DNA from: Candidatus Geohabitans tengchongensis
Lineage (GTDB): Bacteria; Sysuimicrobiota; Sysuimicrobiia; Sysuimicrobiales; Humicultoraceae
Reading direction: 5' to 3'
Assembly: GCA_031459625.1 (NCBI GenBank)
Contig: JAVKIH010000001.1
Span: forward strand, 108,316 to 172,315
Length of the DNA: 64,000 nucleotides
Numbering within the stretch: the first letter of the stretch is position 1; the number at the start of each line of letters is the position of its first letter. The notes below the pieces were generated by a model. That model did no database searches. It worked only from the letters and a program-made list of their open reading frames with translations, and was not told the DNA's origin. Shown piece by piece: positions 8,981-24,768 of the stretch. The translations under genes and the position numbers were made by a program.

Positions 8981-10237
8981 ATGAGCCCGGTCTGGTACAA
9001 AGCCCCCGACCCCCATCCGGGTCCCGACGAGGTCGCGCAGGTTGTGGCCGGCATCCTGGCGGATGTCCGCGCCCGCGGGGATGCAGCGGTGCGCGAACAC
9101 ACGCGGCGCTTCGACGGCGTCGACCGTCCCTCGCCGGTCGTCCCCCGCCAGGCGGCCCTGGCCGCGCTGGACGGGCTCGACCCCCTCACCCGCGAGGCCC
9201 TGCAGTGGGCGCACGACCACATCGCCGCCTTCGCCCGGGCCCAGCGCGACGCGCTGCATCCCCTGGAGGTCGAGGTGGAGCCCGGCGTGCGGGCGGGCCA
9301 CCGCCTCCTCCCGGTCGGGGCGGCCGGGTGCTACGTCCCGGGCGGACGCCATCCGCTCCCCTCCACCGCGCTCATGACCATCGTGCCGGCGCGCGTCGCC
9401 GGGGTGCGGCGGGTGGCGGCCTGCGCCCCACCCGGCCCGGACGGCCAGATCCACCCCGTGACCCTCGCCGCCATGGCCCTCGCCGGCGCCGACGAGATCT
9501 ACTGCATGGGCGGCGCGCAGGCGGTGGCCGCGTTGGCCTTCGGCACGGCCACGGTCGCCCCGGTCGACGTCGTCGTGGGTCCGGGCAACCGCTACGTGGT
9601 GGAGGCGAAGCGGCAGGTCTACGGCACCGTCGGTGTGGACCTCCTCGCCGGCCCCTCCGAGGTGTGCGTGGTGGCCGACGGGAGCGCGGCCCCCGAGCTC
9701 GTCGTCGCCGACCTGCTGGCCCAGGCGGAGCACGACCCCGACGCCCGGGCGGTCCTGGTCACCACCGAGGAGCGGCTGGCGCAGGTGGTAGTGGAGGTGG
9801 TCGCCGCGCGCCTCCGCACGATGCCCGCCCAGGCGGCGGCCCGCCGGGCCTGGGAGGGGCGCGGAGAGGTCATCCTGGTGGCCGACATTGTGGAGGCCGC
9901 GAGCGTCGTGGACCGCCTGGCTCCCGAGCACGTCCTGCTCCACCTGCGCGACCCGGCCCCGCTGGCGGAGCGGCTCACCGCCTACGGGGCCCTCTTCGTC
10001 GGACCGAACAGTGCGGAGGTCTTCGGGGACTACGGCGTCGGTCCCACCCACGTCCTGCCCACCGGGGGGGCGGCCCGCTTCGCCTCGGGCCTCTGGGTGG
10101 GGCACTTCCTGCGGGTCGCCCCCTACCTCGAGGTCTCTCCTGCGGGGGCCGCCGCGCTGGTCCCCGTGGCGACCCGCCTGGCTGAGATCGAGGGGTTACC
10201 CGGCCACGCCTACGCGGCCCGGCTGCGCCTGCCCTGA
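8981..10237 (+). CDS. hisD: Histidinol dehydrogenase family protein (HisD or HisD-like paralog)
   Basis: YVPGG, GPGNRYV, AGPSE, DLLAQAEHD, APEH, GDY..GPTHVLPTGG, EGLPGHA. Confidence 0.8.
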   Translation: MSPVWYKAPDPHPGPDEVAQVVAGILADVRARGDAAVREHTRRFDGVDRPSPVVPRQAALAALDGLDPLTREALQWAHDHIAAFARAQRDALHPLEVEVEPGVRAGHRLLPVGAAGCYVPGGRHPLPSTALMTIVPARVAGVRRVAACAPPGPDGQIHPVTLAAMALAGADEIYCMGGAQAVAALAFGTATVAPVDVVVGPGNRYVVEAKRQVYGTVGVDLLAGPSEVCVVADGSAAPELVVADLLAQAEHDPDARAVLVTTEERLAQVVVEVVAARLRTMPAQAAARRAWEGRGEVILVADIVEAASVVDRLAPEHVLLHLRDPAPLAERLTAYGALFVGPNSAEVFGDYGVGPTHVLPTGGAARFASGLWVGHFLRVAPYLEVSPAGAAALVPVATRLAEIEGLPGHAYAARLRLP

Positions 10238-10251
10238 AATCGGGCCTGGGC

Positions 10252-10281
10252 TTGACTACGAACATATGTTCGCGCTAGGGT
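10252..10281 (+). promoter_or_regulatory. Sigma70-type promoter with a LexA (SOS) box in the spacer
   Basis: TTGACT(10252-57)-N18-TAGGGT(10276-81); perfect palindrome CGAACATATGTTCG at 10259-10272. Confidence 0.88.
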
Positions 10282-10418
10282 GGTGCTGAGGGAGATCCAC
10301 TTCGGCTCTGCGATCCGTCCCGGGCGTCCAGTGTGGAGGACGGGTTTTGGCGTGGAAGCTCACCGATCGTACGCCGCCGAGCTGCGGTCGCGCGGGGAAG
10401 AGGCTGAGTGATTGGGTG

Positions 10419-11585
10419 ATGATACACGGCGCTGCGGCAGAGCCTCACGGACTCCCGCTCATTGCGGCCGCGGCGGAGGCGGCGCTGAACAGGCTCGCGG
10501 CAGAGGCAGGCCCGCCGGTCGCCGTGAGTGCCCCGTCGACGGTCACGCCTCGCCTCTTCCACCCTGTCGGCGAGCGGTCGACTCCAAGGGTGCAGTGGGT
10601 CGAGGTCAGGGTCAGGTCCGTCCTCAACCGCGTCCGCGGCATGCCCTTCCGCTGGTCCATCAACCCCTACCGGGGATGCCAGATGGCCTGCACCTACTGC
10701 TTTGCGCGGGTCACCCACTGGTACCTCGACCAGGACGGCGTGGGGCAGTGGTCCTCGCGCATCTTCGTGAAGGTGAACGCCCCGGAGGTCCTGCGCCGGG
10801 AGCTGGCACGTCCCACGTGGCGGCGGGAACAGGTGCACATCGGCACCGCCACCGACCCGTACCAGCCCGCTGAGGGCGCCTACCGCCTCACCCGGCGCAT
10901 CCTGGAAGCCCTGCGCGACTCCGACACCCCCGCGGCGCTGGTGACGAAGTCGACGATGGCCGTGCGGGACGTGGACGTCCTGGGGCAGCTGGCCGCCGGG
11001 CCGGGTGCCTTCGTCTACTTCACCGTGACGACCGTCGACCCGGTCCTGGCCCGGGAGCTGGAACCCGACGCGCCCCCGCCCCAGCGGCGGCTAGAGGCCA
11101 TGGCACGCCTGGCCGACGCCGGCATCCCGGTGGGCGTGCTCCTCGCCCCGGTGCTCCCCGGCATCACCGACCGCGAGGAGCAGCTGGCCGCGGTGGTCGA
11201 GGCCGCGCGGCACTACGGGGCCAGGGCGCTCTCCACCAACACGCTCTACCTGGGGGAGGTGACGCGCGAGGCCTTCTTCGCCTACCTGACGCAGCGGCGG
11301 CCGGCGCTGGTCCCGGAGTACGAGCGGCTCTACCGCGGGACGTACGCACCCCGGAGCTACCAGCGGCGCGTGCGCGAGGTCGTGGCTGCGCTGAAGGCGC
11401 GCGCCGGGTTCAGCACGTCCCCGCAGGCGTCAGCCCGTCCCGGGCCCACTGCGGGCCGCGGAGCGCGCATGCGCAAGGGGGCGCCTGGGCGTCCTGAGGC
11501 GGTGCTGCTGCGTTCGGCAGACGGCCGGGTGCGCCAGACGGCCCCGGCGCTCGAGGTGCGCCAGACCGTGCTGGCGCTCGGGTGA
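10419..11585 (+). CDS. Radical SAM protein, SplB-like/Rv2578c-like DNA-repair family (start uncertain)
   Basis: INPYRGCQMACTYCFAR (CxxxCxxC), GTATDPYQPAE, TKS, APVLPGITD; LexA box upstream. Confidence 0.88.
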   Translation: MIHGAAAEPHGLPLIAAAAEAALNRLAAEAGPPVAVSAPSTVTPRLFHPVGERSTPRVQWVEVRVRSVLNRVRGMPFRWSINPYRGCQMACTYCFARVTHWYLDQDGVGQWSSRIFVKVNAPEVLRRELARPTWRREQVHIGTATDPYQPAEGAYRLTRRILEALRDSDTPAALVTKSTMAVRDVDVLGQLAAGPGAFVYFTVTTVDPVLARELEPDAPPPQRRLEAMARLADAGIPVGVLLAPVLPGITDREEQLAAVVEAARHYGARALSTNTLYLGEVTREAFFAYLTQRRPALVPEYERLYRGTYAPRSYQRRVREVVAALKARAGFSTSPQASARPGPTAGRGARMRKGAPGRPEAVLLRSADGRVRQTAPALEVRQTVLALG

Positions 11586-11649
11586 CTCCGGCCGGGTGCC
11601 CACCCCGGTGCGCCCGCGCCGGCGGCCGATCCCGCCGGCGGCACTTCCG

Positions 11650-11678
11650 TTGACAGCCCCAGAGACCCTCCCTACGCT
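11650..11678 (+). promoter_or_regulatory. Sigma70-type promoter of citrate synthase
   Basis: TTGACA-N17-TACGCT, then AAGGAGG RBS before GTG 11703. Confidence 0.7.
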
Positions 11679-11702
11679 AGATTCGCCAAGGAGGGACACC
11701 GC

Positions 11703-12839
11703 GTGTCGCAGGGGGCGCGTCCGCAGGTTCAGGCCGGGCTGGAAGGGGTCGTCGCGGCGGCCTCCGCCATCTCCTTCGTCGACGGTCAGGAAGGCCGGCT
11801 CCTCTACCGCGGGTACGACATCCACGACCTCGCCGAGCACAGCACCTTCGAGGAGGTCGTCTACCTCCTCTGGCACGGCGAGCTGCCCACCCGGGCCCAG
11901 CTCACGGCGCTGCGTCGCGAGCTGGGGGAGGCCCGGGCCCTCCCCGACGGGGCGCTGCGGGTGCTGCGGGTCCTGCCGGCCAACGCCGACCCCATGGACG
12001 CGCTGCGCACGGCCACCTCGGCGCTCGGTGCCCTGGATCCGGACGGGCGTGCGCCGGCGGTGGAGGCGGCGCGGCGCATCGCCGGGCGGCTGGTGGCGCA
12101 GTTCCCCACGGTGGTGGCCGCTTTCCACCGGTTGCGCCAAGGACTCGACCCGGTCGCTCCCACCCCCACCCGCGGGCACGCCGCCGACTTCCTGGCCATG
12201 CTCTTCGGCCGTGAGCCCGAGCCGGAGCTGGCACGGGCGATGGACGTCGCCCTCATCCTCCACGCCGACCACGAGCTGAACGCCAGCACCTTCGCCGCGC
12301 GCGTCACCGCCGCCACCCTCTCCGACATGTACGCCGCCGTCACCTCGGCGGTGGGGACGCTCAAGGGGCCGCTCCACGGCGGGGCCAACGAGGACGTCAT
12401 GCGCGTGCTGCAGGAGATCGGCCGCCTGGAGCGGGTGCGCCAGGTCGTCCACGCGAAGCTGGAGCGCAAGGAGAAGATCCCCGGCTTCGGCCACCGCGTC
12501 TACCGCACCGAGGACCCGCGGGTCCGGCACCTCCGCCGCCTGGCCCGGGAACTGGGAGCGCGGGCCGGCGACCTGACCTGGTTCGAGCTGACCCGGGCGC
12601 TGGAGGAGGTGGTGCGGGAGGAGAAGGGCCTCTACCCCAACGTCGACCTCTACTCCGCCGCCACCTACCAGGCCATGGGGATCCCCATGGACCTGTTCAC
12701 CTCGGTCTTCGCGGTCAGCCGCATCAGCGGCTGGACCGCCCACGTGCTGGAGCAGTACGGCGACAACCGCCTCATCCGGCCGCGCGCCGAGTACATCGGG
12801 CCGCAGCGCCGGGCCTACGTCCCGCTCGACCTGCGCTAG
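11703..12839 (+). CDS. gltA: Citrate synthase (short type; 2-methylcitrate synthase not excluded)
   Basis: GLEGV, YRGY, DHELNAST, GPLHGGANE, GFGHRVY, DPR, PNVDLYS, RISGWTAH. Confidence 0.92.
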   Translation: MSQGARPQVQAGLEGVVAAASAISFVDGQEGRLLYRGYDIHDLAEHSTFEEVVYLLWHGELPTRAQLTALRRELGEARALPDGALRVLRVLPANADPMDALRTATSALGALDPDGRAPAVEAARRIAGRLVAQFPTVVAAFHRLRQGLDPVAPTPTRGHAADFLAMLFGREPEPELARAMDVALILHADHELNASTFAARVTAATLSDMYAAVTSAVGTLKGPLHGGANEDVMRVLQEIGRLERVRQVVHAKLERKEKIPGFGHRVYRTEDPRVRHLRRLARELGARAGDLTWFELTRALEEVVREEKGLYPNVDLYSAATYQAMGIPMDLFTSVFAVSRISGWTAHVLEQYGDNRLIRPRAEYIGPQRRAYVPLDLR

Positions 12840-13047
12840 CCGCTGCCGCCGCCATCTGCCTGCCGGACGACCGGTGGCGGGGTGCGCCTCCATGGCTGCC
12901 AGGCCGGGAGAGGCCCGAGGCGAGTGGTCGGGCGCCGGCCGGATGGACGCATCGGTCCAGGGTCCGATAGTCCGATCCCGGTGTGGGCCGTAGGCTGGAG
13001 GTAGGCCGTGACGTTGGCCTTCGGGATGGGCGACGGCCGGGGGCGCG

Positions 13048-15234
13048 ATGAGCCTGCGCCGACGGATCATGGTGCTGGCGGCCATCGGGATGGTGGCCGC
13101 CACTGCGCCGTTGGGGCTCATGGGCGTCGGGATGCTCCGTGCCGCCACCGAGCGCGTCCTGGCCGAACGGCTCGCCCTGACGCGGGTGACGGCGGAGCAC
13201 CTCGACGGGCGGCTGAGCCGGAGCCGGGACCACCTGGTGGTCCTGGCGCGCCTGGTGGCGGCCGCGCGGGCGCGCGGCCGTCTCGGGGAGATGCGCCCCG
13301 TCCTCGCGGCCATCACCCTCGAGTCCACAGTGTTCACTGGCGGAGTCCTCCTGACGGACGCCGCGGGTGAGCTGGTCTTCCAGGAACCCGGCACCGACGC
13401 TCTGGCGTTGTCCCGTCAGGACCTGCGCCCGGTGATCCACCAGACCCTGAGCACGGGGCGACCGGCCGTCAGCACGCTGCTCCGCACGGCCGGCAGCCTC
13501 CCCGTCGTCGTCATGACGGTGCCGGTTCCCGGTCCGGGACCCCGGCCGGCGGGAGTGCTGGCCGGAGTGATCAACCTGGCGGACCCTGCCCTGCAGACGT
13601 TCGTGGAGGGCATGGCCGTCGGCACCACGGGGCACGCCGTCGTCGTGGATGCGGACGGCGTCGTCCTGATGAGCACCGACCGCAGGGAACTCTTCACGCG
13701 GGGCGAGCACCCGGAGTTCTTCATCCGGCACATGCGGGCACGGAAGGCCGCCGTGGGGCCGACGGAGGACCGCGAGGGGCACGCCATGGCCTTCGTGCCC
13801 CTGACGACGGTGCCCTGGGGCGTCGCGGCCGGCCAGGACGAAGAGGAGACCTTCGGCCCGATCCGGCGGCTGCGCGACCGCATCGTGCTCTTCGGGCTGG
13901 CGGTGCTGGCCGCCGCCCTCCTCTTCGCGTGGGTGGACACCGGGGCGGTCGCCGCCCCGCTGCGGTTGCTGCAGGAGAACGCCGAGCGCATTGCCCGCGG
14001 CGACCTGGGGCGTCCCGTGGACGTGCAGCGGGGCGACGAGATCGGCGCGCTGGCGCGGAGCTTCGAGACGATGCGGGTCAGGCTCCTGGCCTCTCTGGAA
14101 GAGATCCAGCGCCGGGCCGTCGCCTCCCAGGCCCTCTACGAGGTGGGCACCGAGGTGTTGAGTCTGCGGGACCGGGATGCGGTGCTGCGTTCTGTCGCCG
14201 CCCGTGCCGCCTCGCTCCTCCGGGCCGACGTCGCCGTCGTGTGCCTGTTCGCCGGGCGGGGCGACCGGGCCGTCGTGCGCGCGGCGTCCGGCCCGGCGGC
14301 CGGCGCCGTCGCCCGGGGGAGCACCTTCCCGGTGCCGGCCGGTGATCTCCAGCAGGGCTGCGTGACCTGTGCCAACATCGACGCGGCGCTCCGCTCGTCG
14401 CACCTGGCGGTGCCGCTCACCGTCGGTCGCCGCACGGTGGGTGCGCTCTGTGTCGCCTCCTCCACTCCACGGACCTTCTCCCCGGAGGACCGCGAGATCC
14501 TCAACGGCCTGGCCAACCTGGCCGCTATCGCCGTGGAGAATGCACGGCTGCAGGGGCAGGTGCGGTCACTGGCGGTCGCTGAGGAGCGCGAGCGCATCGC
14601 GCGGGAACTCCACGACAGTGTTGGCCAGGTGTTGGGCTACGTCAACACCAAGGTCCAGGCAGTGAAGCTCCTGCTGGAGGCCGGGAAACTGCCGGAGGCC
14701 CTGGCACAGCTGGGGCAGCTGGAGGACGCGGCGCGCACGAGCTACGCTGACCTGCGGGAGGCCATCCTGGGGCTGCGCACCGAGATCTCGCCCCACTGCC
14801 GGCTGGTGGACGCCTTGCGGGAGTATGTCAGCCGTTTCAGTGAGCTGAGCGGTGTGGAGACCCGGTTGCTCGTCGAGGGCGATCCTGCCGCATACCTCGT
14901 GGACCCGCCCGTCGAGCTCCACCTGATCCGCATCGTCCAGGAAGCGCTGGCCAACGTCCGCAAGCACGCGCGGGCCCGGCGCGCCTGGGTCTGGTTGGTG
15001 GAGCGGGGAGGGACCCTGATGGTGTCCGTCAGCGACGACGGCGTGGGGTTCGACCCGGCCCGCGTCGGCGGGGGGCTGTGGCCGCGGTTCGGCTTGCAGA
15101 CCATGCGCGAGCGGGCGGAAGCCATCGGCGGTTCGTTCGCGGTTCGCCGCCGCGACGGCGGGGGTACGGTGGTGAGCGTCTCCCTGCCCGTGCATCGCGG
15201 GGGACCTGTGGATGCGCGTGCTGCTGGTGGATGA
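13048..15234 (+). CDS. NarX-type sensor histidine kinase (Cache-like, HAMP, GAF, HisKA_3, HATPase)
   Basis: Two TM segments, HAMP DEIGALARSFETM, EERERIARELHD, QEALANVRKHA, DDGVGF, FGLQTMRERA. Confidence 0.93.
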   Translation: MSLRRRIMVLAAIGMVAATAPLGLMGVGMLRAATERVLAERLALTRVTAEHLDGRLSRSRDHLVVLARLVAAARARGRLGEMRPVLAAITLESTVFTGGVLLTDAAGELVFQEPGTDALALSRQDLRPVIHQTLSTGRPAVSTLLRTAGSLPVVVMTVPVPGPGPRPAGVLAGVINLADPALQTFVEGMAVGTTGHAVVVDADGVVLMSTDRRELFTRGEHPEFFIRHMRARKAAVGPTEDREGHAMAFVPLTTVPWGVAAGQDEEETFGPIRRLRDRIVLFGLAVLAAALLFAWVDTGAVAAPLRLLQENAERIARGDLGRPVDVQRGDEIGALARSFETMRVRLLASLEEIQRRAVASQALYEVGTEVLSLRDRDAVLRSVAARAASLLRADVAVVCLFAGRGDRAVVRAASGPAAGAVARGSTFPVPAGDLQQGCVTCANIDAALRSSHLAVPLTVGRRTVGALCVASSTPRTFSPEDREILNGLANLAAIAVENARLQGQVRSLAVAEERERIARELHDSVGQVLGYVNTKVQAVKLLLEAGKLPEALAQLGQLEDAARTSYADLREAILGLRTEISPHCRLVDALREYVSRFSELSGVETRLLVEGDPAAYLVDPPVELHLIRIVQEALANVRKHARARRAWVWLVERGGTLMVSVSDDGVGFDPARVGGGLWPRFGLQTMRERAEAIGGSFAVRRRDGGGTVVSVSLPVHRGGPVDARAAGG

Positions 15235-15880
15235 CCATCCCCTCTTCCGCGACGGCCTCCGAAGCCTGCTCCAGGCCCGGGGCGTTCAGGTCGTCGGCGA
15301 AGCCAGCGACGGGCAGGAAGCGCTCGAGCGCGCCTGGCAGCTTCGGCCCGACGTGGTCCTGATGGACATCACCATGCCCCGGATGGATGGCCTGGAGGCC
15401 ACGCGGCTCATCAAAGCCCGGATGCCCGACGTCAAAGTCGTCATCCTGACCGTCTCTGACGAGGACCGGATGCTCTTCGAGGCGATCAAGAGCGGGGCGC
15501 AGGGCTACCTGCTCAAGAACCTGCGGGCTGACGAGTTCTTCGACCTGCTGAGTGGGATCGAGCGAGGCGAGGCTCCCATCACCCGCCGCCTGGCCAGCCG
15601 CATCCTGGAGGAGTTCGCCCGGGAACCCGGCGGCCCGAGCCGACCCGGGACGCACGACGCGCTCACCGAACGGGAGCGCGACGTGCTCCGCTGCGTCAGC
15701 CAGGGCGCTTCCAACCGCGAGATCGCCGTCATGCTTCGCATCTCGGAGAACACGGTCAAATACCACATGAGGAACATCCTGGAAAAGCTGCACCTGCGGA
15801 ACCGCGCCGAAGTGGTGGCCTACGCGGCCCGGCGGGGATGGCTCCCGCCGGAGCGGCCCCCGGACTCCGACCCGCCCTAA
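15212..15880 (+). CDS. NarL/LuxR-family response regulator
   Basis: LVDDH, DVVLMDITMP, GYLLK, LTERERDVL...SNREIA...TVKYH. Confidence 0.95.
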   Translation: MRVLLVDDHPLFRDGLRSLLQARGVQVVGEASDGQEALERAWQLRPDVVLMDITMPRMDGLEATRLIKARMPDVKVVILTVSDEDRMLFEAIKSGAQGYLLKNLRADEFFDLLSGIERGEAPITRRLASRILEEFAREPGGPSRPGTHDALTERERDVLRCVSQGASNREIAVMLRISENTVKYHMRNILEKLHLRNRAEVVAYAARRGWLPPERPPDSDPP

Positions 15881-15916
15881 CCCCGGCGCGGGAGGGCCCC
15901 GCCGGGTCCGGCCCCG

Positions 15917-15936
15917 CCCTACCCGAACGGGTAGGG
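15917..15936. promoter_or_regulatory. Perfect inverted repeat, candidate response-regulator operator
   Basis: CCCTACCCG-AA-CGGGTAGGG between the regulator and the cupredoxin operon. The 2-nt spacer argues for a protein site rather than an RNA hairpin. Confidence 0.6.
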
Positions 15937-16076
15937 AGCTTGCCCACCTGCCTGGAGGGTCTGCACCACCCGTCCCCCTGCCCACTGGTGCGTTGTGGGC
16001 GGCGACGCGACCGCCTACCGTCGAAGCGGGCCGGCGCAGGAGCGCCGTCCACGTACCTCAGCGGAGGTGAGCAACG

Positions 16077-16559
16077 ATGGGGCGTGCAGTGGGGCTCGCC
16101 ACCATGGTGCTCGTCCTGGCTCTCCTCGTGGGTGCTGCCACCGCGGGCGGCGGGCGGCAGGTGACCGTCACCATGGGCGAAGACGGCCCGCGCATGTTCT
16201 TCCGCCCGGCTCGGATCGTGCTGGCGTCGGGCGTCGAGACGGAGCTCGTCCTGGTGAACCGCGGCAGGCTGAAGCACGAGTTCATGGTGTACGCGCCGCC
16301 GAAGCCCGGCATGTCGCGGGACGCCCTGCACGAGTGGGCCGAGGACAACAACTACTTCAAGGGCCTTGAGGTCACCGTGGAGGGTAGCGGGCTGGAAGTG
16401 GAGACCAGGGAGCTGATCGAGATCGAAGTCGCCGCGGGGAAATCCGCGGAAGTGAAGTTCACGCCGAAGAAGACCGGAACGTTTGAGATGGCCTGCCTGA
16501 TCAAGGATCCGGTGGACCACTACCAGGCGGGGATGCGAGGCACGCTCGTGGTGAAGTAG
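16077..16559 (+). CDS. Secreted type-1 (blue) cupredoxin
   Basis: Signal peptide; KHEFM and CLIKDPVDHYQAGM give the His/Cys/His/Met ligand set. Confidence 0.85.
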   Translation: MGRAVGLATMVLVLALLVGAATAGGGRQVTVTMGEDGPRMFFRPARIVLASGVETELVLVNRGRLKHEFMVYAPPKPGMSRDALHEWAEDNNYFKGLEVTVEGSGLEVETRELIEIEVAAGKSAEVKFTPKKTGTFEMACLIKDPVDHYQAGMRGTLVVK

Positions 16560-16574
16560 TGGAGGTGCGGCGCC

Positions 16575-17024
16575 ATGGGGCAGAGAGCGGTCACCGCCAG
16601 CGCGGTCTTCGTGGCGGTCCTGGCGACGGCGGCGGCCATCTATCTGGTGGATCAAGGGTACCGCCCGCCCATCTCGGCCGCGCCGCCGGTGACGCCGGAA
16701 ATCCGCCGGTTCGACCTCTACCTGCACGCCTTCGAGGTGGGGGACCGCCCCGTCTATCACTGGATGCCGCCGACGCTGGTCGTCAATGCTGGCGACCCGG
16801 TGATGCTGCGGGTGATCAACGCCGACCCTGACAGTGCCCACGGGTTCGCCCTGGGCGCCTTCAACCTCGCGGTCCCCAGCATCCCGCCCGGGCAGGCCAC
16901 CACCCTCCGCTTCCGGGCCACGCGGCCCGGTGTGTACCACTTCGGCTGCGCCCTCACCGGCTGCGCTGCGGATCACGCCAGCCAGGTGGGCCAGCTCGTC
17001 GTCCTGGGCGACACGCCGCCGTGA
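16575..17024 (+). CDS. Membrane-anchored cupredoxin with a CuA-like motif
   Basis: N-terminal TM; PTLVVNAGD, AHGFAL, PGVYHFGCALTGCAADHASQVGQL. Confidence 0.8.
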   Translation: MGQRAVTASAVFVAVLATAAAIYLVDQGYRPPISAAPPVTPEIRRFDLYLHAFEVGDRPVYHWMPPTLVVNAGDPVMLRVINADPDSAHGFALGAFNLAVPSIPPGQATTLRFRATRPGVYHFGCALTGCAADHASQVGQLVVLGDTPP

Positions 17025-17923
17025 GGGTCTCGCGACGGTCCTTCCTCAAGCTTGCCGCCGCCGCCGGGATGGTCGCGGCATGGGCGGTGGGCGAGCCGGC
17101 GGCTCCGGTGCGCCGCCCGTGGGTGGGGGCGGGCCGCGGCGTGCCGGCCCTCGCCCGCAGCACGGGCCAGGCCGGTCGGCCACGTCGCTGGGTCATGGTG
17201 GTGGACCTGGCCAAGTGTGACGGCTGCCAGGAGTGCACCCGGGCGTGCACCGCCATGCACCGCGTCCCGCCAGGACAGGAGTGGATTCGGGTCTACGAGA
17301 TGCGGGACGAGGCCACCGGCCTGGCCTACTGGCTGCCGCGTCCCTGCATGCAGTGCGACAACCCGCCGTGCGTGAAGGTCTGCCCGGTCAGCGCCACGTG
17401 GAAGCGCGACGACGGCATCGTCATGCAGGACACCAGCCGGTGCATCGGCTGTCGGTACTGCATCGCCGCGTGTCCCTACCAGGCCCGGGCCTTCAACTGG
17501 CTCGAGCCGGCCGCCACCCCCGAGCGGACCGGGGAGGCGTACGACCCCGAGTGGAACCGCGTGCATTTCAAGGGCACCACGGAGAAGTGCATCTTCTGCC
17601 CCGCCCTGATCAAGGAGGGGAAGCTTCCCGCCTGCGTGGCAGCCTGTCCCATGGGTGCCATCTATTTCGGCGACCGTGAGGAAGACGCCGTGACCAACTC
17701 CCAGGGCGAGACGGTCCGCTTCTCGGCGCTGGTGACCGAGCAGGCCGGCTACCGCCTGTTGGAGGAGCTGGGCACCGAGCCGCGCGTCTACTACCTGCCG
17801 CCGCGCCAGCGCCTCTACCCCGCGCCGCCGGCGGAGCCGGCGGCGGCACCTGTGCCGGCGGCGGCGCCGCGACGGACCGTTCCGCCGGACCGGCCTGGCG
17901 CCGTCGGAGGTGCGGTGCCATGA
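17021..17923 (+). CDS. Tat-exported 4x[4Fe-4S] NrfC/DmsB-like (ActB C-terminal-like) electron-transfer protein
   Basis: SRRSFLK Tat motif; CDGCQECTRAC, CMQCDNPPCVKVCP, CIGCRYCIAACPY, KCIFC...PACVAACP; LGTEPRVYY. Confidence 0.92.
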   Translation: MRVSRRSFLKLAAAAGMVAAWAVGEPAAPVRRPWVGAGRGVPALARSTGQAGRPRRWVMVVDLAKCDGCQECTRACTAMHRVPPGQEWIRVYEMRDEATGLAYWLPRPCMQCDNPPCVKVCPVSATWKRDDGIVMQDTSRCIGCRYCIAACPYQARAFNWLEPAATPERTGEAYDPEWNRVHFKGTTEKCIFCPALIKEGKLPACVAACPMGAIYFGDREEDAVTNSQGETVRFSALVTEQAGYRLLEELGTEPRVYYLPPRQRLYPAPPAEPAAAPVPAAAPRRTVPPDRPGAVGGAVP

Positions 17924-19488
17924 GCAGGCCGCCTCACCACGGGTTCTCGGACCGCGAGGAGCGCCTGCTCGCCTCGCTGTCGGCGGGCGGAACGGGCTTC
18001 TCCGCCTTGATCGGGGGGCTGCTGGCGGTGGTCGTCTGGGGCCTGGTGGCGTATGCCACGCAGCTGCGCCACGGCCTGGGCGTCACCGGTCTGCGCGACC
18101 ACGTCCTGTGGGGCGTCTACATCGCCAACTTCGTCTTCTTCATCGGCGTCAGCCACGTGGGCGCCCTGATGTCGGCCATCCTGCGTCTGACGGGCGCCGA
18201 GTGGCGGCGCCCCATCACCCGCATGGCGGAGGCCATCACCTTTGCCTCCCTCCTGATGGGAGCCCTGATGCCGGTGGTGGACATGGGGCGACCAGACCGG
18301 TTGCTGACCCTCATCGGGCATGGCCGACTGCAGTCCCCGATCCTGTGGGACATCCTGTCCATCACGACCTACCTGACCGGCAGTACGCTCTTCCTCTACG
18401 TGCCCATGATCCCCGACCTCGCCCTCCTGCGCCACCGCTACGCCGGGGGCCCCGCCTGGCGCCGGCGGCTGTACACCCTCCTGAGCCTCGGGTGGCAGGA
18501 CACCCCCGCCCAGCGCCACGCCCTGGAGACCATCATGCGGGTGCTGGCGGTGATGATCATCCCGATCGCCGTCTCCGTGCACACCGTCGTCTCCTGGATC
18601 TTCGGCATGACGCTGCGCGCAGGCTGGAACAGCACCATCTTCGGTCCCTACTTCGTCTCGGGGGCCCTGTTCAGCGGGGCCGCGGCGGTCGTGACAGCCA
18701 TGGCGACGTTTCGGTGGGCCTACCACCTGGAGGACTACATCACCGAGGCGCACTTCCGGCGCATGGGCTACTTGCTCATCGCGCTGGGGCTGGCGTACGG
18801 CTACTTCACGTTCGCGGAGTACCTGACGCCCGCCTACAAGATGGCGACCGCCGAGCGGGGGTACCTCACGGCCGTCTTCAGCGGTCCCTTGGCGCGGCTG
18901 TTCTGGTTCACGCAGCTGACTGGCATCTTGCTCCCGGTGCTCCTCCTCACCCTGCCGCGGATCGCCTGGGTGCCTCGGCTGCACAGGGTACCGCTGTTGC
19001 GACCGCGGCCGGCGCTGGCGGCAGCCGTCACGTACGCCGTCGCCACCGTGGTCCTGTCCGCCGCCGGCCCGCGCATGACGATGGCCCGCGTGAACCTGAC
19101 CGCGCTGATCCCACCGTGGGCGCTGCCGGCGCTGGTCCTCTGGCTCTTCCTGGCCTGGCTCCCCGTCTTCCACGTCCGGCCCATCGCGGCCGCCGTGGTC
19201 GCTTCGCTGCTGGTGAACGTCGGCGCATGGCTCAAGCGCTACCTCATCATCGTCCCGACGCTGCTCAACCCCTTCCTGCCCATCCAGCGTGCACCGACTG
19301 GGTGGGCCGCCTACCAGCCCACCTGGGTGGAGTGGTCGATCACGGCCGGCGCGCTGGCGGGTTTCGCGCTCATCTACATCGGGTTCAGCAAGGTGTTCCC
19401 CATCATCCCCATCTGGGAGACGCGCCAGGAGCCCGCGCCGCTCCGCCCGGCCGGCCAGGAGGGGGTCCCCGGTGTCCCGGCGCTTTAG
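17920..19488 (+). CDS. NrfD/PsrC-family quinol-interacting membrane subunit, ActC-like
   Basis: WGVYIANFVFFIGVSHVG, RMAEAIT, DMGRP, SPILWD, SVHTVVS, GWNSTIFGPYFVSGALFSG; many TM helices. Confidence 0.9.
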   Translation: MSRPPHHGFSDREERLLASLSAGGTGFSALIGGLLAVVVWGLVAYATQLRHGLGVTGLRDHVLWGVYIANFVFFIGVSHVGALMSAILRLTGAEWRRPITRMAEAITFASLLMGALMPVVDMGRPDRLLTLIGHGRLQSPILWDILSITTYLTGSTLFLYVPMIPDLALLRHRYAGGPAWRRRLYTLLSLGWQDTPAQRHALETIMRVLAVMIIPIAVSVHTVVSWIFGMTLRAGWNSTIFGPYFVSGALFSGAAAVVTAMATFRWAYHLEDYITEAHFRRMGYLLIALGLAYGYFTFAEYLTPAYKMATAERGYLTAVFSGPLARLFWFTQLTGILLPVLLLTLPRIAWVPRLHRVPLLRPRPALAAAVTYAVATVVLSAAGPRMTMARVNLTALIPPWALPALVLWLFLAWLPVFHVRPIAAAVVASLLVNVGAWLKRYLIIVPTLLNPFLPIQRAPTGWAAYQPTWVEWSITAGALAGFALIYIGFSKVFPIIPIWETRQEPAPLRPAGQEGVPGVPAL

Positions 19489-20125
19489 CGCTAGCGCGCT
19501 GATCGCCGGCCCGGGGGGGGTCTGGCTGGGCCTGGCGGTGGCGGCGCTGTTCGCCTGCCCGGCGTGGGCCGCCGAGCCGGCCCGCATCACCCTGGAGGTG
19601 GCGGGCCTCGAGGACGCGCGGTGGATCATGGCCGTGGTCACCGACGCGACAGGCGCGCCGGTGCCCGAGGCGCTCATCGTGTTCAAGGCCCGCACGACCT
19701 TCGGCTGGCTCCTCCTGGAGGAGCGATCGACGGACGCCGCCGGCCGGGCGCGGATGGGCCTTCCCGCCGGCGTGCGGGCGACGGCGATCCGAGCGGAGAG
19801 CGCGGACATCGGGCAGGTGCACGCGACCGTGCGCGTGGGTGGACCGTCCCCGGCCACTCCGCGGGTGCGACCGGACCGCGACGTGCTCAGGGCCCTGAGC
19901 CCGCAGCCGGGCGTGATCAGTCCCTATCCCGTGCCGGCGCAGGTGGCGCTGCTCGCGGCGGTCCTGGGCGGGATCTGGGCGACGTATGGGTATGTGGCCT
20001 GGCTCCTGTGGCGCATCCGCACGTCCGGTCGGTCGCAGGGCGTGAGGGCGCCGGCGTCCCCGGAGCGGGAACCGCTCACTGCTCGGCTTGGGTGGCCTCC
20101 AGGAAGGCGTGCAGGGCTGTCGTGA
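19472..20125 (+). CDS. Hypothetical exported protein with C-terminal membrane anchor
   Basis: AGGAGG RBS before GTG 19472 overlapping the NrfD end; signal peptide (AWA/AEP); beta-rich middle; C-terminal TM (LLAAVLGGIWATYGYVAWLLW). Confidence 0.65.
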   Translation: MSRRFSASALIAGPGGVWLGLAVAALFACPAWAAEPARITLEVAGLEDARWIMAVVTDATGAPVPEALIVFKARTTFGWLLLEERSTDAAGRARMGLPAGVRATAIRAESADIGQVHATVRVGGPSPATPRVRPDRDVLRALSPQPGVISPYPVPAQVALLAAVLGGIWATYGYVAWLLWRIRTSGRSQGVRAPASPEREPLTARLGWPPGRRAGLS

Positions 20126-20870
20126 ACGCTTCCGGCGTCTCCAGGTTGCTCAGGTGGCCCGCCTCCGGCAGCACGATCAGCCGGCTGTTCGGGATGGCTG
20201 CGGCCATGGCCCGCGCGACCTCCGGCGGGGTGACCGAGTCCTCCTCCCCGACGAGGACCAGGGTGGGCACGGTGATCTGGGACAGGAGGGGACGGCTGTC
20301 GGGACGGGCCGCCAGCGCCCGCAGGGTGGCCGCCAGCGCCCGCGGATCCGCCGTCGCCGCCAGTGCCTCCACGGTGGCGACGACGTGAGGACGGCGGGCG
20401 CGGGTCGTAGGACCCACCAGCCCGCCGACGAAGTCGCGCAGGGCCTCGCACCCCTCCTGCGCGACGCGCGCGGCCAGCGCCAGGCGGCGCGCCCGGCCCT
20501 CCTCCGTGTCCGGCTCGGCTCGCGTGTCGGCAAGGACGAGCCGGGTGGCGAAGGTCGGCGCCTGCTCCAGCAGCCGGAAGGCCACGTAGCCGCCCATGGA
20601 GAGACCGATCACGGTGGCCCGGGCGATGCCCAGTGACGCTGCCAGCGCCCTCACGTCGGCGGCGAGCTGCGCCAGCGTCACCTGGTCGCTGACGGAGGAC
20701 TCCCCGAAGCCGCGCAAGTCCACGGTGAGCACCTGAAACCGGTCGCGCAGTCCGGCGACCTGGGGCCGCCACATGCCCCGGTGGAGGGGGAAGCCGTGCA
20801 GGAAAAGGAGGGGCTCGCCGCTCCCCTCCAGGTCGTAGCCCAGCGTCACCCCGTCCACGGTGCGTCGCAT
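20076..20870 (-). CDS. Alpha/beta hydrolase (enol-lactonase-like)
   Basis: FLHGFP, DLRGFGES, GLSMGG, GEED, AGHLSNLE. Confidence 0.9.
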   Translation of the reverse strand: MRRTVDGVTLGYDLEGSGEPLLFLHGFPLHRGMWRPQVAGLRDRFQVLTVDLRGFGESSVSDQVTLAQLAADVRALAASLGIARATVIGLSMGGYVAFRLLEQAPTFATRLVLADTRAEPDTEEGRARRLALAARVAQEGCEALRDFVGGLVGPTTRARRPHVVATVEALAATADPRALAATLRALAARPDSRPLLSQITVPTLVLVGEEDSVTPPEVARAMAAAIPNSRLIVLPEAGHLSNLETPEAFTTALHAFLEATQAEQ

Positions 20871-20923
20871 CGTGCCCTCCTCCTCGGGCGGGCTGCCGGC
20901 ATGCCCTTGCTATCATACAGACC

Positions 20924-21490
20924 GTGCGGATCCTGGCCTGTGCCGACCTCCACGGACGGCCGGCTCGCGTGGCGCGGGTCCGGGCGCTGGTCGCCGAGCA
21001 CCGCCCCGATGTCCTCTGTCTGGCGGGAGACCTGACGCACGCTGGCAGCGGCTCCGGGGCCCTCCAGCTGCTGGAGACCCTGGACGTGCCCATCGTGGCC
21101 GTGTCGGGGAACATGGACGACGCCCACACCGTGGAGGCGATGCGGCGGCGCGGGGTCCTCCTCGGCGACTCCCCCCGGGTCATCGGTGGGGTGACCTTCG
21201 CCGGCCCCGAGGTGGCCGGGCCCTGCGACGTGCTGGTGACGCACGAGCCTCCCGCCGGCGTGCTGGACCGCGTGGGCACCGGCCGGCACATCGGCTCCCC
21301 GGCGGTGCGCGCGCTGATCGAGCGCTGGCAACCGCGGCTGCACGTCTGCGGCCACGTCCACGAGTCGCCGGGCGTGGTCCGCCTGGGCGCCACGACGGTC
21401 GTGAACTGCACGCTGGGCCGCGACGAGATCGCCGGCGCCTTGGCCGTCCTCGAGGGCGAAGCGCTGGACGTGCGCCTCCTCCCCCCGTAA
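20924..21490 (+). CDS. Calcineurin-like metallophosphoesterase
   Basis: ADLHG, AGDLT, GNMD, THEPP, CGHVHE. Confidence 0.88.
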   Translation: MRILACADLHGRPARVARVRALVAEHRPDVLCLAGDLTHAGSGSGALQLLETLDVPIVAVSGNMDDAHTVEAMRRRGVLLGDSPRVIGGVTFAGPEVAGPCDVLVTHEPPAGVLDRVGTGRHIGSPAVRALIERWQPRLHVCGHVHESPGVVRLGATTVVNCTLGRDEIAGALAVLEGEALDVRLLPP

Positions 21491-21660
21491 CTACTCCGCT
21501 CCCCATCGGTGGGTGGGCCCGGTCGTCGGACTGCAGGCCCGCCGCCCACCGCCCTGGTGCGGCCGTTCGTGCTCCCTTCCGGCTAGTTGTGCGTCACAGT
21601 GAGACCGCGGAGAGCGGGCGGTGCAAGCATGGCCTCACACCGACGAGAGGTCAACCAGCC

Positions 21661-22374
21661 GTGGGAGAGCCGGGGAGGGACGCGCGGAGCGGCGCGGGCC
21701 AACAGACGCTCCCGGCGGCGGAGACGCTGCTGCCGCTCGTCCGGGGGATTGCCCGGGGCGTGGCGCAGGCGTTGCCGCCGTCGGTGGAGGTGGACGACCT
21801 CGTACACGACGGGGTCGTGGGGTTGCTCGAGGCGATCGGGCGGTTCGACCCGTCGCGCGGCGTGGACTTCAGCACCTACGCCACCTACCGCATTCGGGGA
21901 GCCATCCTCGACGGCCTGCGCGGGCGCGACCCGCTCCCCCGCAGCCTGCGCCGCCAGCTGGGCGCGGCGCCCCGCGCATCGGCCCCGCTGGCCGTCGTGC
22001 CGCTGAAGGTCGTCCCACTGGATGCGGCCCTCGTCCTCGCCGGCGACGACGGGCAGCCCGAGGAGGCCCTGCTGGCCGAGGAGTTGCGGGCCGAGGTGGA
22101 GCGAGCCCTGCGCGCCCTCCCCCCGCGCCACCGGCGGCTCCTGGCCCTGCGCTTCGGCCGGGGGCTGCGCCTGCGGGAGGTGGCCGCCTGCTTCGGGATC
22201 TCCATGACGCGCGCAGCGGAGCTCCAGGAGCGGGCCATCCGCCGGCTGCGCACAGCCCTGGCGGTGGAACACCCCGACGGGCTCTCCCCGAACGGCAAGC
22301 CGCGGCGGCGCCGTCCTGCAGCCAACGCCGCTCCGAGCGTCCCGCCGGGCGAGCCAGCCACGGTTTCCAGGTGA
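21661..22374 (+). CDS. FliA/WhiG-like RNA polymerase sigma factor, shortened (start uncertain)
   Basis: Region 2 DDLVHDGVVGLLEAIGRFDPSRGVDFSTYATYRIRGAILDGLR; region 4 LPPRHRRLLALRF...LREVAACFGIS; GAGAGG before GTG 21661. Confidence 0.82.
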   Translation: MGEPGRDARSGAGQQTLPAAETLLPLVRGIARGVAQALPPSVEVDDLVHDGVVGLLEAIGRFDPSRGVDFSTYATYRIRGAILDGLRGRDPLPRSLRRQLGAAPRASAPLAVVPLKVVPLDAALVLAGDDGQPEEALLAEELRAEVERALRALPPRHRRLLALRFGRGLRLREVAACFGISMTRAAELQERAIRRLRTALAVEHPDGLSPNGKPRRRRPAANAAPSVPPGEPATVSR

Positions 22375-22390
22375 CCGCCTGGAGGGCATA

Positions 22391-23194
22391 GTGGCCCGCC
22401 AGGGTTGGGGAGGGAGCATGGCCGGGCGCGAGGGAGGCGTGTGGTCTGCTCCGGATGCCGTGGCCGCGGTGGAGCAGATCCACGCCCACTTTCTCTGCAA
22501 CGCCCTCACCGCGGTCCAGCTCTGGGTGGGGACACACCCCCGCCTCGCCGAGCAGCTCATCGGGTTGCTGGCCGGATACGTGCAGGCCCGGCTCACCCCG
22601 GCCACGGTCGTCCCGCTGCGGCACGAGCTCGAGGTCGTGCTCACCTACCTGGCCCTCGAGCGGGTGCGACTGGGACCACGTCTGCGCACCCGGCTGGCCA
22701 TCGCCCCCGAGACGCTGACGGCCGCCATCCCGCCGCTCGTCCTCCAGCCGCTGGTCGAGAACGCGGTGATCCACGGGGTGAGCGCCCGGCCGCTGGGCGG
22801 CACGGTGGAGGTGCACGCCTGCCGGCGGCGAGATCGGCTGCTCCTCCTGGTGGCCGACGACGGGCTCCCGGTGGCCGCCGACGGGAGGGTCGCCGACGGG
22901 CATCGAGCGCAGCGGGCGTGGCTCGGCGGAGGGCGATCACGACCCGGCCCGGGGCTGGCGCTGCGCAACGTGCGCCGCCGGCTGCACCTGGCGTACGGTC
23001 GGCAGGGAGCGGTGCGCGTGGTGCGCCGCCTCGGACGCGGGTGGCTGGCGGTGGCGAGCCTGCCCTTTGAGGAGGCCGGAGAGACGGAGGCGACCGCAGA
23101 GACGGTGGGACCGCCGGCGTGGCCGGAGGAGCGCGGGCAGCGTGCGGAGCAGGGGCACGGAGGGGCGGATGCGGGCCCTCGTGGTGGACGATGA
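22391..23194 (+). CDS. LytS/YehU-type histidine kinase core without sensor domain
   Basis: EQIHAHFLCNAL, ELEVVLTYLALERVRLG, LQPLVENAVIHG, DDG, GLALRNVRRRL. Alternative ATG at 22418. Confidence 0.82.
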   Translation: MARQGWGGSMAGREGGVWSAPDAVAAVEQIHAHFLCNALTAVQLWVGTHPRLAEQLIGLLAGYVQARLTPATVVPLRHELEVVLTYLALERVRLGPRLRTRLAIAPETLTAAIPPLVLQPLVENAVIHGVSARPLGGTVEVHACRRRDRLLLLVADDGLPVAADGRVADGHRAQRAWLGGGRSRPGPGLALRNVRRRLHLAYGRQGAVRVVRRLGRGWLAVASLPFEEAGETEATAETVGPPAWPEERGQRAEQGHGGADAGPRGGR

Positions 23195-23879
23195 GGCAGC
23201 GGGGCGCCGGCTGCTCGGCCGGCTGCTCCGCGATCTGGGGCACGCGGTCGTGGCCGAGGCCAGCACCGGCGCGGAGGCACTGGCCGTGCTGGCGCACCGG
23301 ACGGTCGATGCCGCCTTCCTCGACATCCGGCTCCCGGACCTGGACGGGCTGGCGGTGGGGGATCGGTGCCGGCGGGCCGGGATCCCGGTCGTCTTCGTCA
23401 CCGGGTTTCCGGACTACGCGCTCCCCGCCTACGACGTGGCGGCGGTCGACTACCTGGTGAAACCACCGACCCTCGACCGGCTGGGGCGGGCCCTGGCTCG
23501 CCTGCGCGCGGCCGGGGAACAGACAGCGTCCCAGGGCGGGGCCCCGGACCGGCTGTGCCTGCGCGTGGATGGCGAGCACCGCCTCATCGCGGTGCGCCAC
23601 GTGCTGGCGGTGCGGGCCGACGGTGCCGTGGTCACCCTGTGGCTTGAGGAGGGGTCGCTGCGGGCCCGGGTCCCGCTCGGGCGCCTGGAGCAGCTGCTCG
23701 TGCCCCACGGCTTCTTCCGCTGCCACCGCGCCTACCTGGTGAACCTGCGCCGGGTGCGGCGGATCGTCGCCTGGTCGCGCGAGGCCCACAGCCTCCTGCT
23801 CGACGACGCACAGGAAACCCTCATCCCCCTGGCCAAATCCCGCAGGCGGGCGCTGCGCGCGTTGCTCCTCTGGCCTTAG
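23169..23879 (+). CDS. LytTR-family response regulator
   Basis: VVDDE, FLDIRLP, DYLVKP, FFRCHRAYLVNL. Confidence 0.93.
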   Translation: MRALVVDDEAAGRRLLGRLLRDLGHAVVAEASTGAEALAVLAHRTVDAAFLDIRLPDLDGLAVGDRCRRAGIPVVFVTGFPDYALPAYDVAAVDYLVKPPTLDRLGRALARLRAAGEQTASQGGAPDRLCLRVDGEHRLIAVRHVLAVRADGAVVTLWLEEGSLRARVPLGRLEQLLVPHGFFRCHRAYLVNLRRVRRIVAWSREAHSLLLDDAQETLIPLAKSRRRALRALLLWP

Positions 23880-23979
23880 ACTGCCCGGGGCGCCGGCGCA
23901 GGGTCCCCTCTGCGGCGTGCCCGCGCGCGGTCCACGCCGGAGGTCTCGGGCAGGCCGGTTCACCGGTGGGGAGGCAGGG

Positions 23980-24768
23980 ATGGACCTGGGGATCCGGGGA
24001 CGGGTGGCGCTGGTCACCGGCGCGAGCCGCGGCCTGGGACGGGCCGTGGCGGTGGCGCTGGGGCGGGAGGGCGCGCGAGTGGCTCTGGCCGCACGCTCGG
24101 CCGAGGCGCTGCGGGCAGCGGTGGCCGAGGTGCGCGGCGTCGGCGGCGAGGCGGTGGACATCGTCGCGGACGTGGCCACCGCGGAAGGGGCCACCCGGGC
24201 CGCGGAGGAGGCGGCGCGGCTGGGCCCCGTGGAGATCCTGGTGGCCAATGCCGGCGGCCCGCCCGCGGGAGCCTTCCTCGAGGTGGACGACGCGGCGTGG
24301 GAGGAGGCCGTCCGCCTCACCCTGCTCAGCGTCGTGCGCCTCTGCCGCGCCGTCATCCCGGGGATGCGTCAGCGACGGTGGGGGCGGATCATCGCCGTGA
24401 CTTCCTACGTGATGAAGCAGCCCCTGCGCGGCCTCGTCCTGAGCAACAGCGTGCGCCTGGCCGTGGCGGGCCTGACGAAGACGCTGGCCGACGAGCTGGG
24501 TCCCCACAACATCCTGGTGAACACCGTCTGTCCAGGCCCGATCGCCACCGACCGGCTGGTAGCCCTCACCCGCACGATGGCGGCGCGCCAGGGGATCTCC
24601 GAGGAAGAGGCAACGCAGCGCCTGTGGACCGACGACCTCCCACTAGGACGGCTGGGGCGGCCGGAGGAGTTCGCCGCGGTGGTGGCCTTCCTGGCCTCGG
24701 AGCAGGCCAGCTTCGTCACGGGGACGGTGATCCAGGTGGATGGCGGCAAGATCCGGGGGGTGCTGTGA
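23980..24768 (+). CDS. SDR family oxidoreductase
   Basis: TGASRGLG, NAGGP, GRPEEFA, VDGG. Confidence 0.92.
   Translation: MDLGIRGRVALVTGASRGLGRAVAVALGREGARVALAARSAEALRAAVAEVRGVGGEAVDIVADVATAEGATRAAEEAARLGPVEILVANAGGPPAGAFLEVDDAAWEEAVRLTLLSVVRLCRAVIPGMRQRRWGRIIAVTSYVMKQPLRGLVLSNSVRLAVAGLTKTLADELGPHNILVNTVCPGPIATDRLVALTRTMAARQGISEEEATQRLWTDDLPLGRLGRPEEFAAVVAFLASEQASFVTGTVIQVDGGKIRGVL

Follow-up and report, generated by a model that had tools for sequence, protein, structure and literature searches.

A conserved operon pairing cupredoxins with Fe-S and NrfD-family subunits: a candidate menaquinol:cupredoxin oxidoreductase of the phylum CSP1-3

Introduction

How might a quinone-reactive membrane subunit pass on its electrons when the operon that encodes it holds copper proteins and no cytochrome? 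The question is raised by seven genes in a 64,000-nucleotide stretch of the genome of Candidatus Geohabitans tengchongensis (assembly GCA_031459625.1, contig JAVKIH010000001.1, positions 108,316–172,315; hereafter the window), in which two cupredoxins (Cu1 and Cu2), an iron-sulfur (Fe-S) protein, an NrfD-family membrane protein and an anchored accessory protein (the adaptor) are encoded directly after a two-component pair. An earlier note, made from the sequence alone, proposed that copper proteins here replace the cytochromes of alternative complex III (ACIII) in a quinol:cupredoxin oxidoreductase. In our judgement the operon probably encodes an inducible menaquinol:cupredoxin oxidoreductase that feeds periplasmic copper enzymes. 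The module is real and conserved, and its composition is apparently undescribed: a literature search with little coverage of subscription papers found no published description, in agreement with the earlier note. The terms "complex III" and "cupredoxin" do not occur in the available main text of two CSP1-3 papers, whose supplementary gene tables could list the genes.

Results

A seven-gene run with two cupredoxins and no cytochrome

All seven genes were confirmed on the forward strand of the window. The sensor kinase (13048–15234) has a dCache-like periplasmic domain followed by HAMP, GAF, HisKA_3 and HATPase domains (Pfam), and the next gene (15212–15880) encodes a response regulator of the NarL/LuxR family, assigned by domain and family models and by related regulators. 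Cu1 (16077–16559), identified by Pfam and motif, is an exported type-1 cupredoxin with predicted ligands H67, C140, H148 and M153. It is followed after 15 nt by Cu2 (16575–17024), an N-terminally anchored cupredoxin whose CuA-like motif (H89, C125, C130, D133, H134, Q137) was recognized from homologues, a structure model and an alignment. The NrfC/DsrO-type Fe-S subunit (17021–17923; Pfam and NCBIfam), with a Tat-like (twin-arginine translocation) signal and four predicted [4Fe-4S] clusters, overlaps Cu2 by 4 nt and overlaps, again by 4 nt, the gene for a 522-amino-acid NrfD-family quinone-reactive membrane subunit (17920–19488) that is sister in type to ActC of ACIII by Pfam, structure matches and trees. 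The run ends with the adaptor (~19469–20125, start inferred; profile and model), which has a signal peptide, one immunoglobulin (Ig)-like, Big_1-like domain and a C-terminal membrane helix.

These coordinates bear out the packed and partly overlapping arrangement that the earlier note had described. Its observation that cytochromes and molybdenum subunits are missing also held: no CxxCH motif was found in any of the seven products, and no molybdopterin subunit within the run or inside related operons. A contig from a public sequencing run covers 14915–24000 with one base different; it possibly derives from the source sample and argues only against misassembly. The window adaptor gene and some Fe-S genes were recovered via tblastn or profile. 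The closest titled database records of NrfD are from "Bacterium HR32" (88%), "Armatimonadetes bacterium CSP1-3", Ca. Thermofontivivens and Ca. Calidihabitans.

Copper and haem carriers alternate on the adaptor

The adaptor is a regular third subunit throughout the NrfD clade to which the window protein belongs (described below). It lies beside NrfD or is fused to it in 39 of 44 other clade rows, and the five misses have less than 530 nt of sequence left; none was found among 34 ACIII-side or 11 outgroup rows. The window adaptor was modelled as a single beta sandwich with a long C-terminal helix (predicted local distance difference test, pLDDT, 86) and carries no redox domain. Elsewhere its N-terminal domain is a cytochrome c (nine rows, from Bacteroidota, Chloroflexota and Clostridia, one of them short and atypical), a two-Cys cupredoxin (seven rows, six Chloroflexota and one CSP1-3) or neither (23 rows). 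The copper domain of these adaptors is related to Cu2 (hhalign 94.8%, E = 5e-8) and weakly matches auracyanin and NosZ (E 0.002–0.004). P0369 has both Pfam domains; P0090 is a fusion of NrfD, cytochrome c and adaptor, and P0034 one of NrfD and a bare adaptor. The N-terminal type was bare at L050 and L051 and confirmed as CuA-like at L043. Copper and haem carriers are thus swapped on one scaffold, and this exchange is our best evidence that the two do the same job here.

The earlier idea of copper in place of cytochromes gains from this alternation and from the conserved composition; a role as the organism's only complex III is not supported (see below). The earlier note had counted a regular cytochrome c at homologous loci as contrary evidence. 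Distant homologous loci do regularly have one, yet it is fused where others carry a cupredoxin.

When an adaptor profile, built from 28 of these adaptors, was run against 1.84 billion proteins, multi-Ig adhesins overwhelmed the result, which confirms the Ig family only. A word-based search returned 35 copper-motif, six cytochrome c and two other adaptors (n = 43), a sample that is biased to the search's own first row and gives no family proportions. The ESM Atlas yielded unnamed clusters only. Second copies of the Fe-S/NrfD/adaptor set (54% identity), followed by two exported proteins of ~177 and ~478 amino acids without Pfam match, were noted at L037:2741-7486, L070:13-5415, L042:1217-6000 and L039:14494-16631.

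The module is conserved and patchy in the phylum

A Cu2 profile was positive in 19 of 94 genomes of the phylum CSP1-3 (Sysuimicrobiota), 11/54 among those of high quality. In 15 of these 19 the Fe-S gene directly follows the Cu2 gene; of the others, one is at a contig end, one is degraded and two fall outside the loci read under their own handle. Inside the operons of the phylum loci read, neither a cytochrome c (CxxCH) nor a molybdo-subunit was found. The composition is conserved, as the proposal of the earlier note required. Among 61 closer relatives there are 14 bearers, defined by Cu2 plus an NrfD of at least 60% identity. The module is patchy and accessory in the phylum and is not the organism's complex III.

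The neighbours are mostly respiratory and vary. An oxidase operon is inserted between regulator and cupredoxins at L038 and L040, upstream of the palindrome described below; at L136 and L137 the module has a nos cluster no more than ~15 kb away; and genes for ZIP, CopD-like proteins and further cupredoxins occur near some copies. The degraded copy (L143:7551-9520, genome G023) retains kinase, regulator and Cu1 fragments, an intact-looking Cu2 and the palindrome, and has no Fe-S or NrfD gene.

NrfD is ActC-like, and the module is not ACIII

The 300-amino-acid Fe-S protein is a stand-alone product with 16 Cys, and its Tat-signal match is weak (18.5 bits, cut-off 22.7). With NrfD it has the form of an NrfCD-type pair, an exported four-cluster Fe-S subunit coupled to an NrfD membrane subunit. 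All scores against curated models fall below the cut-off (DsrO 187/200, QrcC 155/400, NrfC 135/378, DsrP 104/350, QrcD 42/570), which sets the module apart from the NrfCD, PsrBC, DsrOP and QrcCD pairs. Neither the cupredoxins nor the Ig adaptor is listed as a partner in the portion of the NrfD review consulted (PMC8076601).

The earlier note had seen a likeness to ActC in five motifs (NFVFFIGVSH, RMAEAIT, SPILWD, SVHTVVS, IFGPYFVSGA). All are present in the NrfD translation. In the PDB its top four hits are subunit C chains of ACIII (E 2e-55 to 3e-52), so that ActC of ACIII (ActABCDEF; PDB 6F0K, 6BTM, 6LOD, 8K9E; the menaquinol:auracyanin oxidoreductase of Chloroflexus and Roseiflexus included) is the closest solved structure; the Fe-S subunit likewise matches the C-terminal part of ActB. 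The likeness does not extend to membership of ACIII. FastTree, applied to 93 rows, places the window NrfD within a 45-row clade separate from the ACIII rows. With IQ-TREE on 44 chosen rows, run without bootstrap and with an uncertain root, all 25 adaptor-bearing rows form one clade (Shimodaira–Hasegawa-like approximate likelihood ratio test, SH-aLRT, 96) and the ten ACIII rows another (99). The phylogeny that the earlier note had asked for therefore unites the adaptor-bearing proteins and leaves them outside the ActC clade.

Where the window Fe-S protein has Cys144, 30 ACIII-side Fe-S rows have Thr; according to the sections available of PMC7439408, this position corresponds in ACIII to a [3Fe-4S] cluster near the quinol site. 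ActC His139, Asp253 and Glu394 are unchanged in all 30 ACIII NrfD rows, in contrast to Asp121, Ile227 and Lys439 of the window. Table 2 of PMC8076601 lists 23 ActC residues, of which 17 are kept in the window NrfD, Arg395 included, when mapped from the NrfD-ActC alignment: 2/4 at the quinone site, 11/13 on the cytoplasm side and 4/6 on the outer side. At the quinone site, Ser139, Asp144 and Asp121 are invariant in 89 aligned sequences and match positions listed for ActC and QrcD, as befits an NrfCD-type pair.

The remaining ACIII subunits were sought. For ActA and ActE, no CxxCH was found in the operon and no multiheme protein among the 2572 called genes of the assembly (2.76 Mb, rated 94% complete). 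For ActD and ActF, the operon has one NrfD, and elsewhere in the genome nothing but a fragment on contig C9 matched. The molybdoenzyme-like half of ActB is not present beside the stand-alone Fe-S protein. With ActA, ActD, ActE and ActF missing, Cys144 kept, three diagnostic ActC residues different and a clade of its own, we reject the identification of the module as ACIII, from which the Ig adaptor also distinguishes it.

Three side observations concern these subunits. Relative to ActC, the window NrfD has an insertion of ~70 residues (window 18950–19180, residues ~345–420) that contains two hydrophobic segments; the shorter family members of 440–460 amino acids lack it. In Bacteroidota rows (e.g. 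L076, L080, L083) two Cys ligands of the membrane-distal clusters (window positions 69 and 193) are missing from the Fe-S subunits, which go together with a cytochrome c adaptor. Contig C9 holds a molybdoenzyme/Fe-S/NrfD operon (G000:C9:49294-52284) that is broken by frameshifts, with a transposase-like gene after it where the contig ends.

Cu2 is a CuA-like site with a predicted Gln ligand

Cu2 was described in the earlier note as an anchored CuA-like protein. Across the copper-binding region it can be aligned to the CuA domains of both NosZ and COX2, HGF, the Cys pair and the second His all being in register, and its predicted structure is likewise a cupredoxin fold (pLDDT 88). The label needs a qualification: the canonical CuA pattern (His, Cys-x3-Cys, His, axial Met) is not found, Cu2 having one extra residue between the Cys pair (C-x4-C) and Gln in place of the axial Met. 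The motif with Gln is kept in 73 of 74 homologues (Met in 1/74), and the predicted ligands are invariant or nearly so. Judged from the sequences, Cu2 offers a natural example of a CuA-like site whose predicted axial ligand is Gln; it differs from the domains of NosZ and oxidase subunit II also in being free-standing and membrane-anchored and in an invariant Asp before the His. An axial Gln ligand lowers the potential of a copper site, which would suit Cu2 as first acceptor.

Several module copies add a second anchored cupredoxin pair whose Cys loop is longer (Met in 26, Gln in three). A Cu2-related anchored pair (Cys-x10-Cys-x-Pro-Asp-His-x2-Met) was also observed near nosZ in genomes without the module (L146:8828-9741, L147:2190-3139, L148:7880-8672, L145:13877-14825, L150:10566-11368); two of these pairs directly follow a periplasmic molybdoenzyme operon of the Nar/EbdABC type.

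Cu1 has the type-1 ligands His, Cys, His and Met in order and, as an exported type-1 cupredoxin, resembles pseudoazurin, azurin and CopI. Pseudoazurin and azurin are donors of NirK. The best NCBIfam match of Cu1 is CopI (48 bits, cut-off 280); it is also far under the plastocyanin cut-off and has no close relative among solved structures (best E 0.0024).

A conserved palindrome precedes the cupredoxin genes

The two-component pair was called NarX/NarL-type in the earlier note. Class and adjacency stand, and the NarX label does not: the kinase scores 149.5 bits with the NarQ model (cut-off 553) and 121 with NarX (578), its periplasmic domain is dCache-like, and we reject its identification as NarX or NarQ; the regulator scores 176 with NarL (250). 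Regulators 72–86% identical adjoin most related modules. The GAF domain is absent from four of 15 related kinases; in the window (14242–14452) it holds Cys399 and Cys468, retained in most GAF-bearing relatives, and a further Cys is found near 438–441. These Cys residues are possibly a redox or metal site.

A palindrome, CCTACCC-N4-GGGTAGG, at 15918–15935 was derived from 12 upstream regions and is a candidate operator for the regulator, given its matches upstream of module genes. With at most one mismatch it occurs 24 times in the 1,720,912 bases of 119 fetched loci, and all 24 matches are intergenic and directly before a module cupredoxin or second Fe-S gene. After twice-fetched loci were dropped, 16 sites remained, nine of them outside the motif-discovery regions. 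It was not found at two bearers (L031 and L035). The conserved palindrome fits control by the adjacent regulator, which would bind there. The second Fe-S/NrfD/adaptor copy at L039 has a palindrome of its own.

Genome-wide, 11 matches with at most one mismatch were found versus 13, 5 and 8 in three shuffles, so a wider regulon was rejected. One of the single-mismatch matches sits inside cox2 of this genome. A second perfect palindrome lies at G000:C44:42605, between the genes of a sugar ABC (ATP-binding cassette) permease and a membrane transporter.

A candidate promoter, TTGTGG-17-TACCGT (15993–16021, forward strand), was read by eye, and 6 of 11 related upstream regions hold similar pairs; scans for promoters and terminators gave no hit, the consensus scan missing this candidate too.

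The respiratory setting

Nine of nine relatives read have a Rieske/cytochrome b cluster. Cytochrome b was not found in this genome's assembly, the sole exception among the 14 bearers. We attribute this most likely to an assembly gap, because contig C22 begins inside the final gene of such a cluster, with its last residues (56–77% over 20–25 residues). The module as the sole complex III of the genome was accordingly rejected; it likely runs beside a Rieske/cytochrome b complex and not in its place. The missing cluster, at the start of C20 and C22:1-199, comprises genes for a diheme cytochrome c, a Rieske protein, two cytochromes b and a final Cys-containing protein; this twin-cytochrome-b cluster of the phylum is itself unusual.

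The genome encodes a single heme-copper oxidase, which has a CuA motif and lacks a fused cytochrome, and a NirK above cut-off; bd oxidase, NosZ and futalosine genes gave no match. Motifs also point to a CtaA-CtaB-like fusion and to a MenA-like gene. Just one clear c-type cytochrome occurs in the assembly, at G000:C8:46770-49043, and presumably, by its motifs, is fused to a CopC/CopD-like protein in a copper-uptake-like cluster; this count of one is a lower bound because of the gap at the bc cluster.

Among the 61 relatives, a COX1-family gene occurs in 14/14 bearers versus 36/47 others (the unpublished genomes G008 and G018 counted among the non-bearers). Within these COX1-bearing genomes, NirK is found in 7 of 14 bearers versus 3 of 36 others (by genus, 6/10 versus 2/17), and NirK or NosZ in 12/14 versus 16/36; the NirK and NosZ counts are inflated by kin and weakened by incomplete genomes. 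A module specific to N2O was rejected, NosZ being neither found here nor enriched among bearers.

Discussion

Proposed electron path

The path that we infer starts at NrfD, which by analogy with NrfCD-type pairs would oxidize quinol at the outer face. Four [4Fe-4S] clusters could then relay the electrons to the anchored Cu2, which would accept them in the role that the adaptor cytochrome c or cupredoxin domain may have in other members, and the exported Cu1 would serve as onward carrier. The sink in this organism would be NirK, a CuA-type oxidase or both: N-oxide respiration of the NirK type has a somewhat better than even chance, and the oxidase falls a little short of one. The two-component pair would switch the module on via the palindrome. 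Such chemistry would be of a known kind, since NrfCD-type pairs can operate alone (according to the available text of PMC6303296) and ACIII works as menaquinol:auracyanin oxidoreductase (going by the part seen of PMC7439408); the chemistry proposed here, quinol to a blue-copper carrier, is the same.

More tentatively, and with the balance leaning somewhat against so broad a claim, the clade may represent widespread, undescribed quinol oxidoreductases of three subunits (Fe-S, NrfD and Ig adaptor) whose exit carrier can be exchanged, and of which the CSP1-3 form would be entirely haem-free and lead from quinol through a Gln-ligated CuA-type centre and blue copper to NirK or oxidase.

Other readings

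Several results weigh against the proposed quinol:cupredoxin function. Two ActC quinone-site residues are changed (His139 to Asp121, Asp253 to Ile227), and the Asp121 form is shared with the quinone-reducing QrcD (Asp120). Cytochrome b is present in 56 of the 61 relatives, 13/14 bearers and 43/47 non-bearers alike, so nothing demands a second quinol oxidase. As no futalosine gene was matched, the quinone type is deduced from the MenA-like gene only. NosZ by itself is not enriched among COX1-bearing bearers (7/14 versus 15/36). No palindrome was found before this genome's oxidase operon or nirK, and at L038 and L040 it lies downstream of the oxidase genes. The adaptor profile hits are partly circular, because the profile was built from 28 of the same adaptors, although adjacency is not. 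One RNA run (X1) covers 9000–24000 evenly at ~28-fold, is DNA-like and is uninformative on expression; a second (X2) gave scraps only.

The Asp121 result would fit a reversed, Qrc-like flow in which a periplasmic oxidation supplies electrons to the cupredoxins and the pair passes them to quinone. That DsrO and QrcC are the top NCBIfam matches of the Fe-S subunit and that the cytoplasm-side channel residues are so well kept point the same way, and such pairs are known to run in both directions (PMC6303296, from the text at hand). Yet NrfD is far closer to ActC than to the QrcD model, and the operon has no conserved neighbour that codes for a periplasmic donor enzyme. Electrons would also have to move uphill, cupredoxin potentials being normally well above that of menaquinone. 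We regard this direction as unlikely. A little less likely still is that the Fe-S/NrfD pair serves a molybdoenzyme or multiheme cytochrome encoded elsewhere, with the cupredoxins as passengers. Molybdoenzyme operons or Rieske-cytochrome b-multiheme clusters do adjoin the module at L031, L033 and L034, and this genome has the broken operon on C9; but the neighbouring molybdoenzymes have Fe-S subunits of their own (at L031 also an NrfD, of a distant clade), the neighbours vary while the Cu2-Fe-S coupling stays, and the Cu2 ligands are hardly those of a passenger in their near-invariance.

We give least credence to a copper- or metal-stress system in which Cu1 is CopI-like and the membrane pair sets the redox state of bound copper. 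The CopI match that suggests it is far below cut-off, the kinase is of the HisKA_3 and not the CusS type, and half-way homologues have cytochrome c instead of copper. The ZIP, CopD-like and extra cupredoxin genes near some copies would agree with such a role, as would the palindrome between divergent ZIP and cupredoxin genes at L033, L034 and L037, but the neighbours are respiratory for the most part.

Significance

If true, the quinol:cupredoxin reading would add, beside bc complexes and ACIII, a third route from quinol to high-potential periplasmic enzymes, one without c-type haem, and a candidate answer for the electron supply to NirK and NosZ in CSP1-3, a phylum common in deep soil and hot springs. 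Proton pumping by ActC has been proposed and is unconfirmed (PMC13059093, in the part available). A small natural ActC relative with most channel residues kept and Glu394 replaced by Lys makes such pumping testable; as it lacks ActF and haems, it would offer the smallest system in which to test for proton movement by the membrane subunit alone. The palindrome and the dCache-like sensor offer a direct route to the inducing signal.

Elsewhere in the window, the first gene (2–1654) encodes what we take, from its motifs, to be an intein-bearing replicative helicase.

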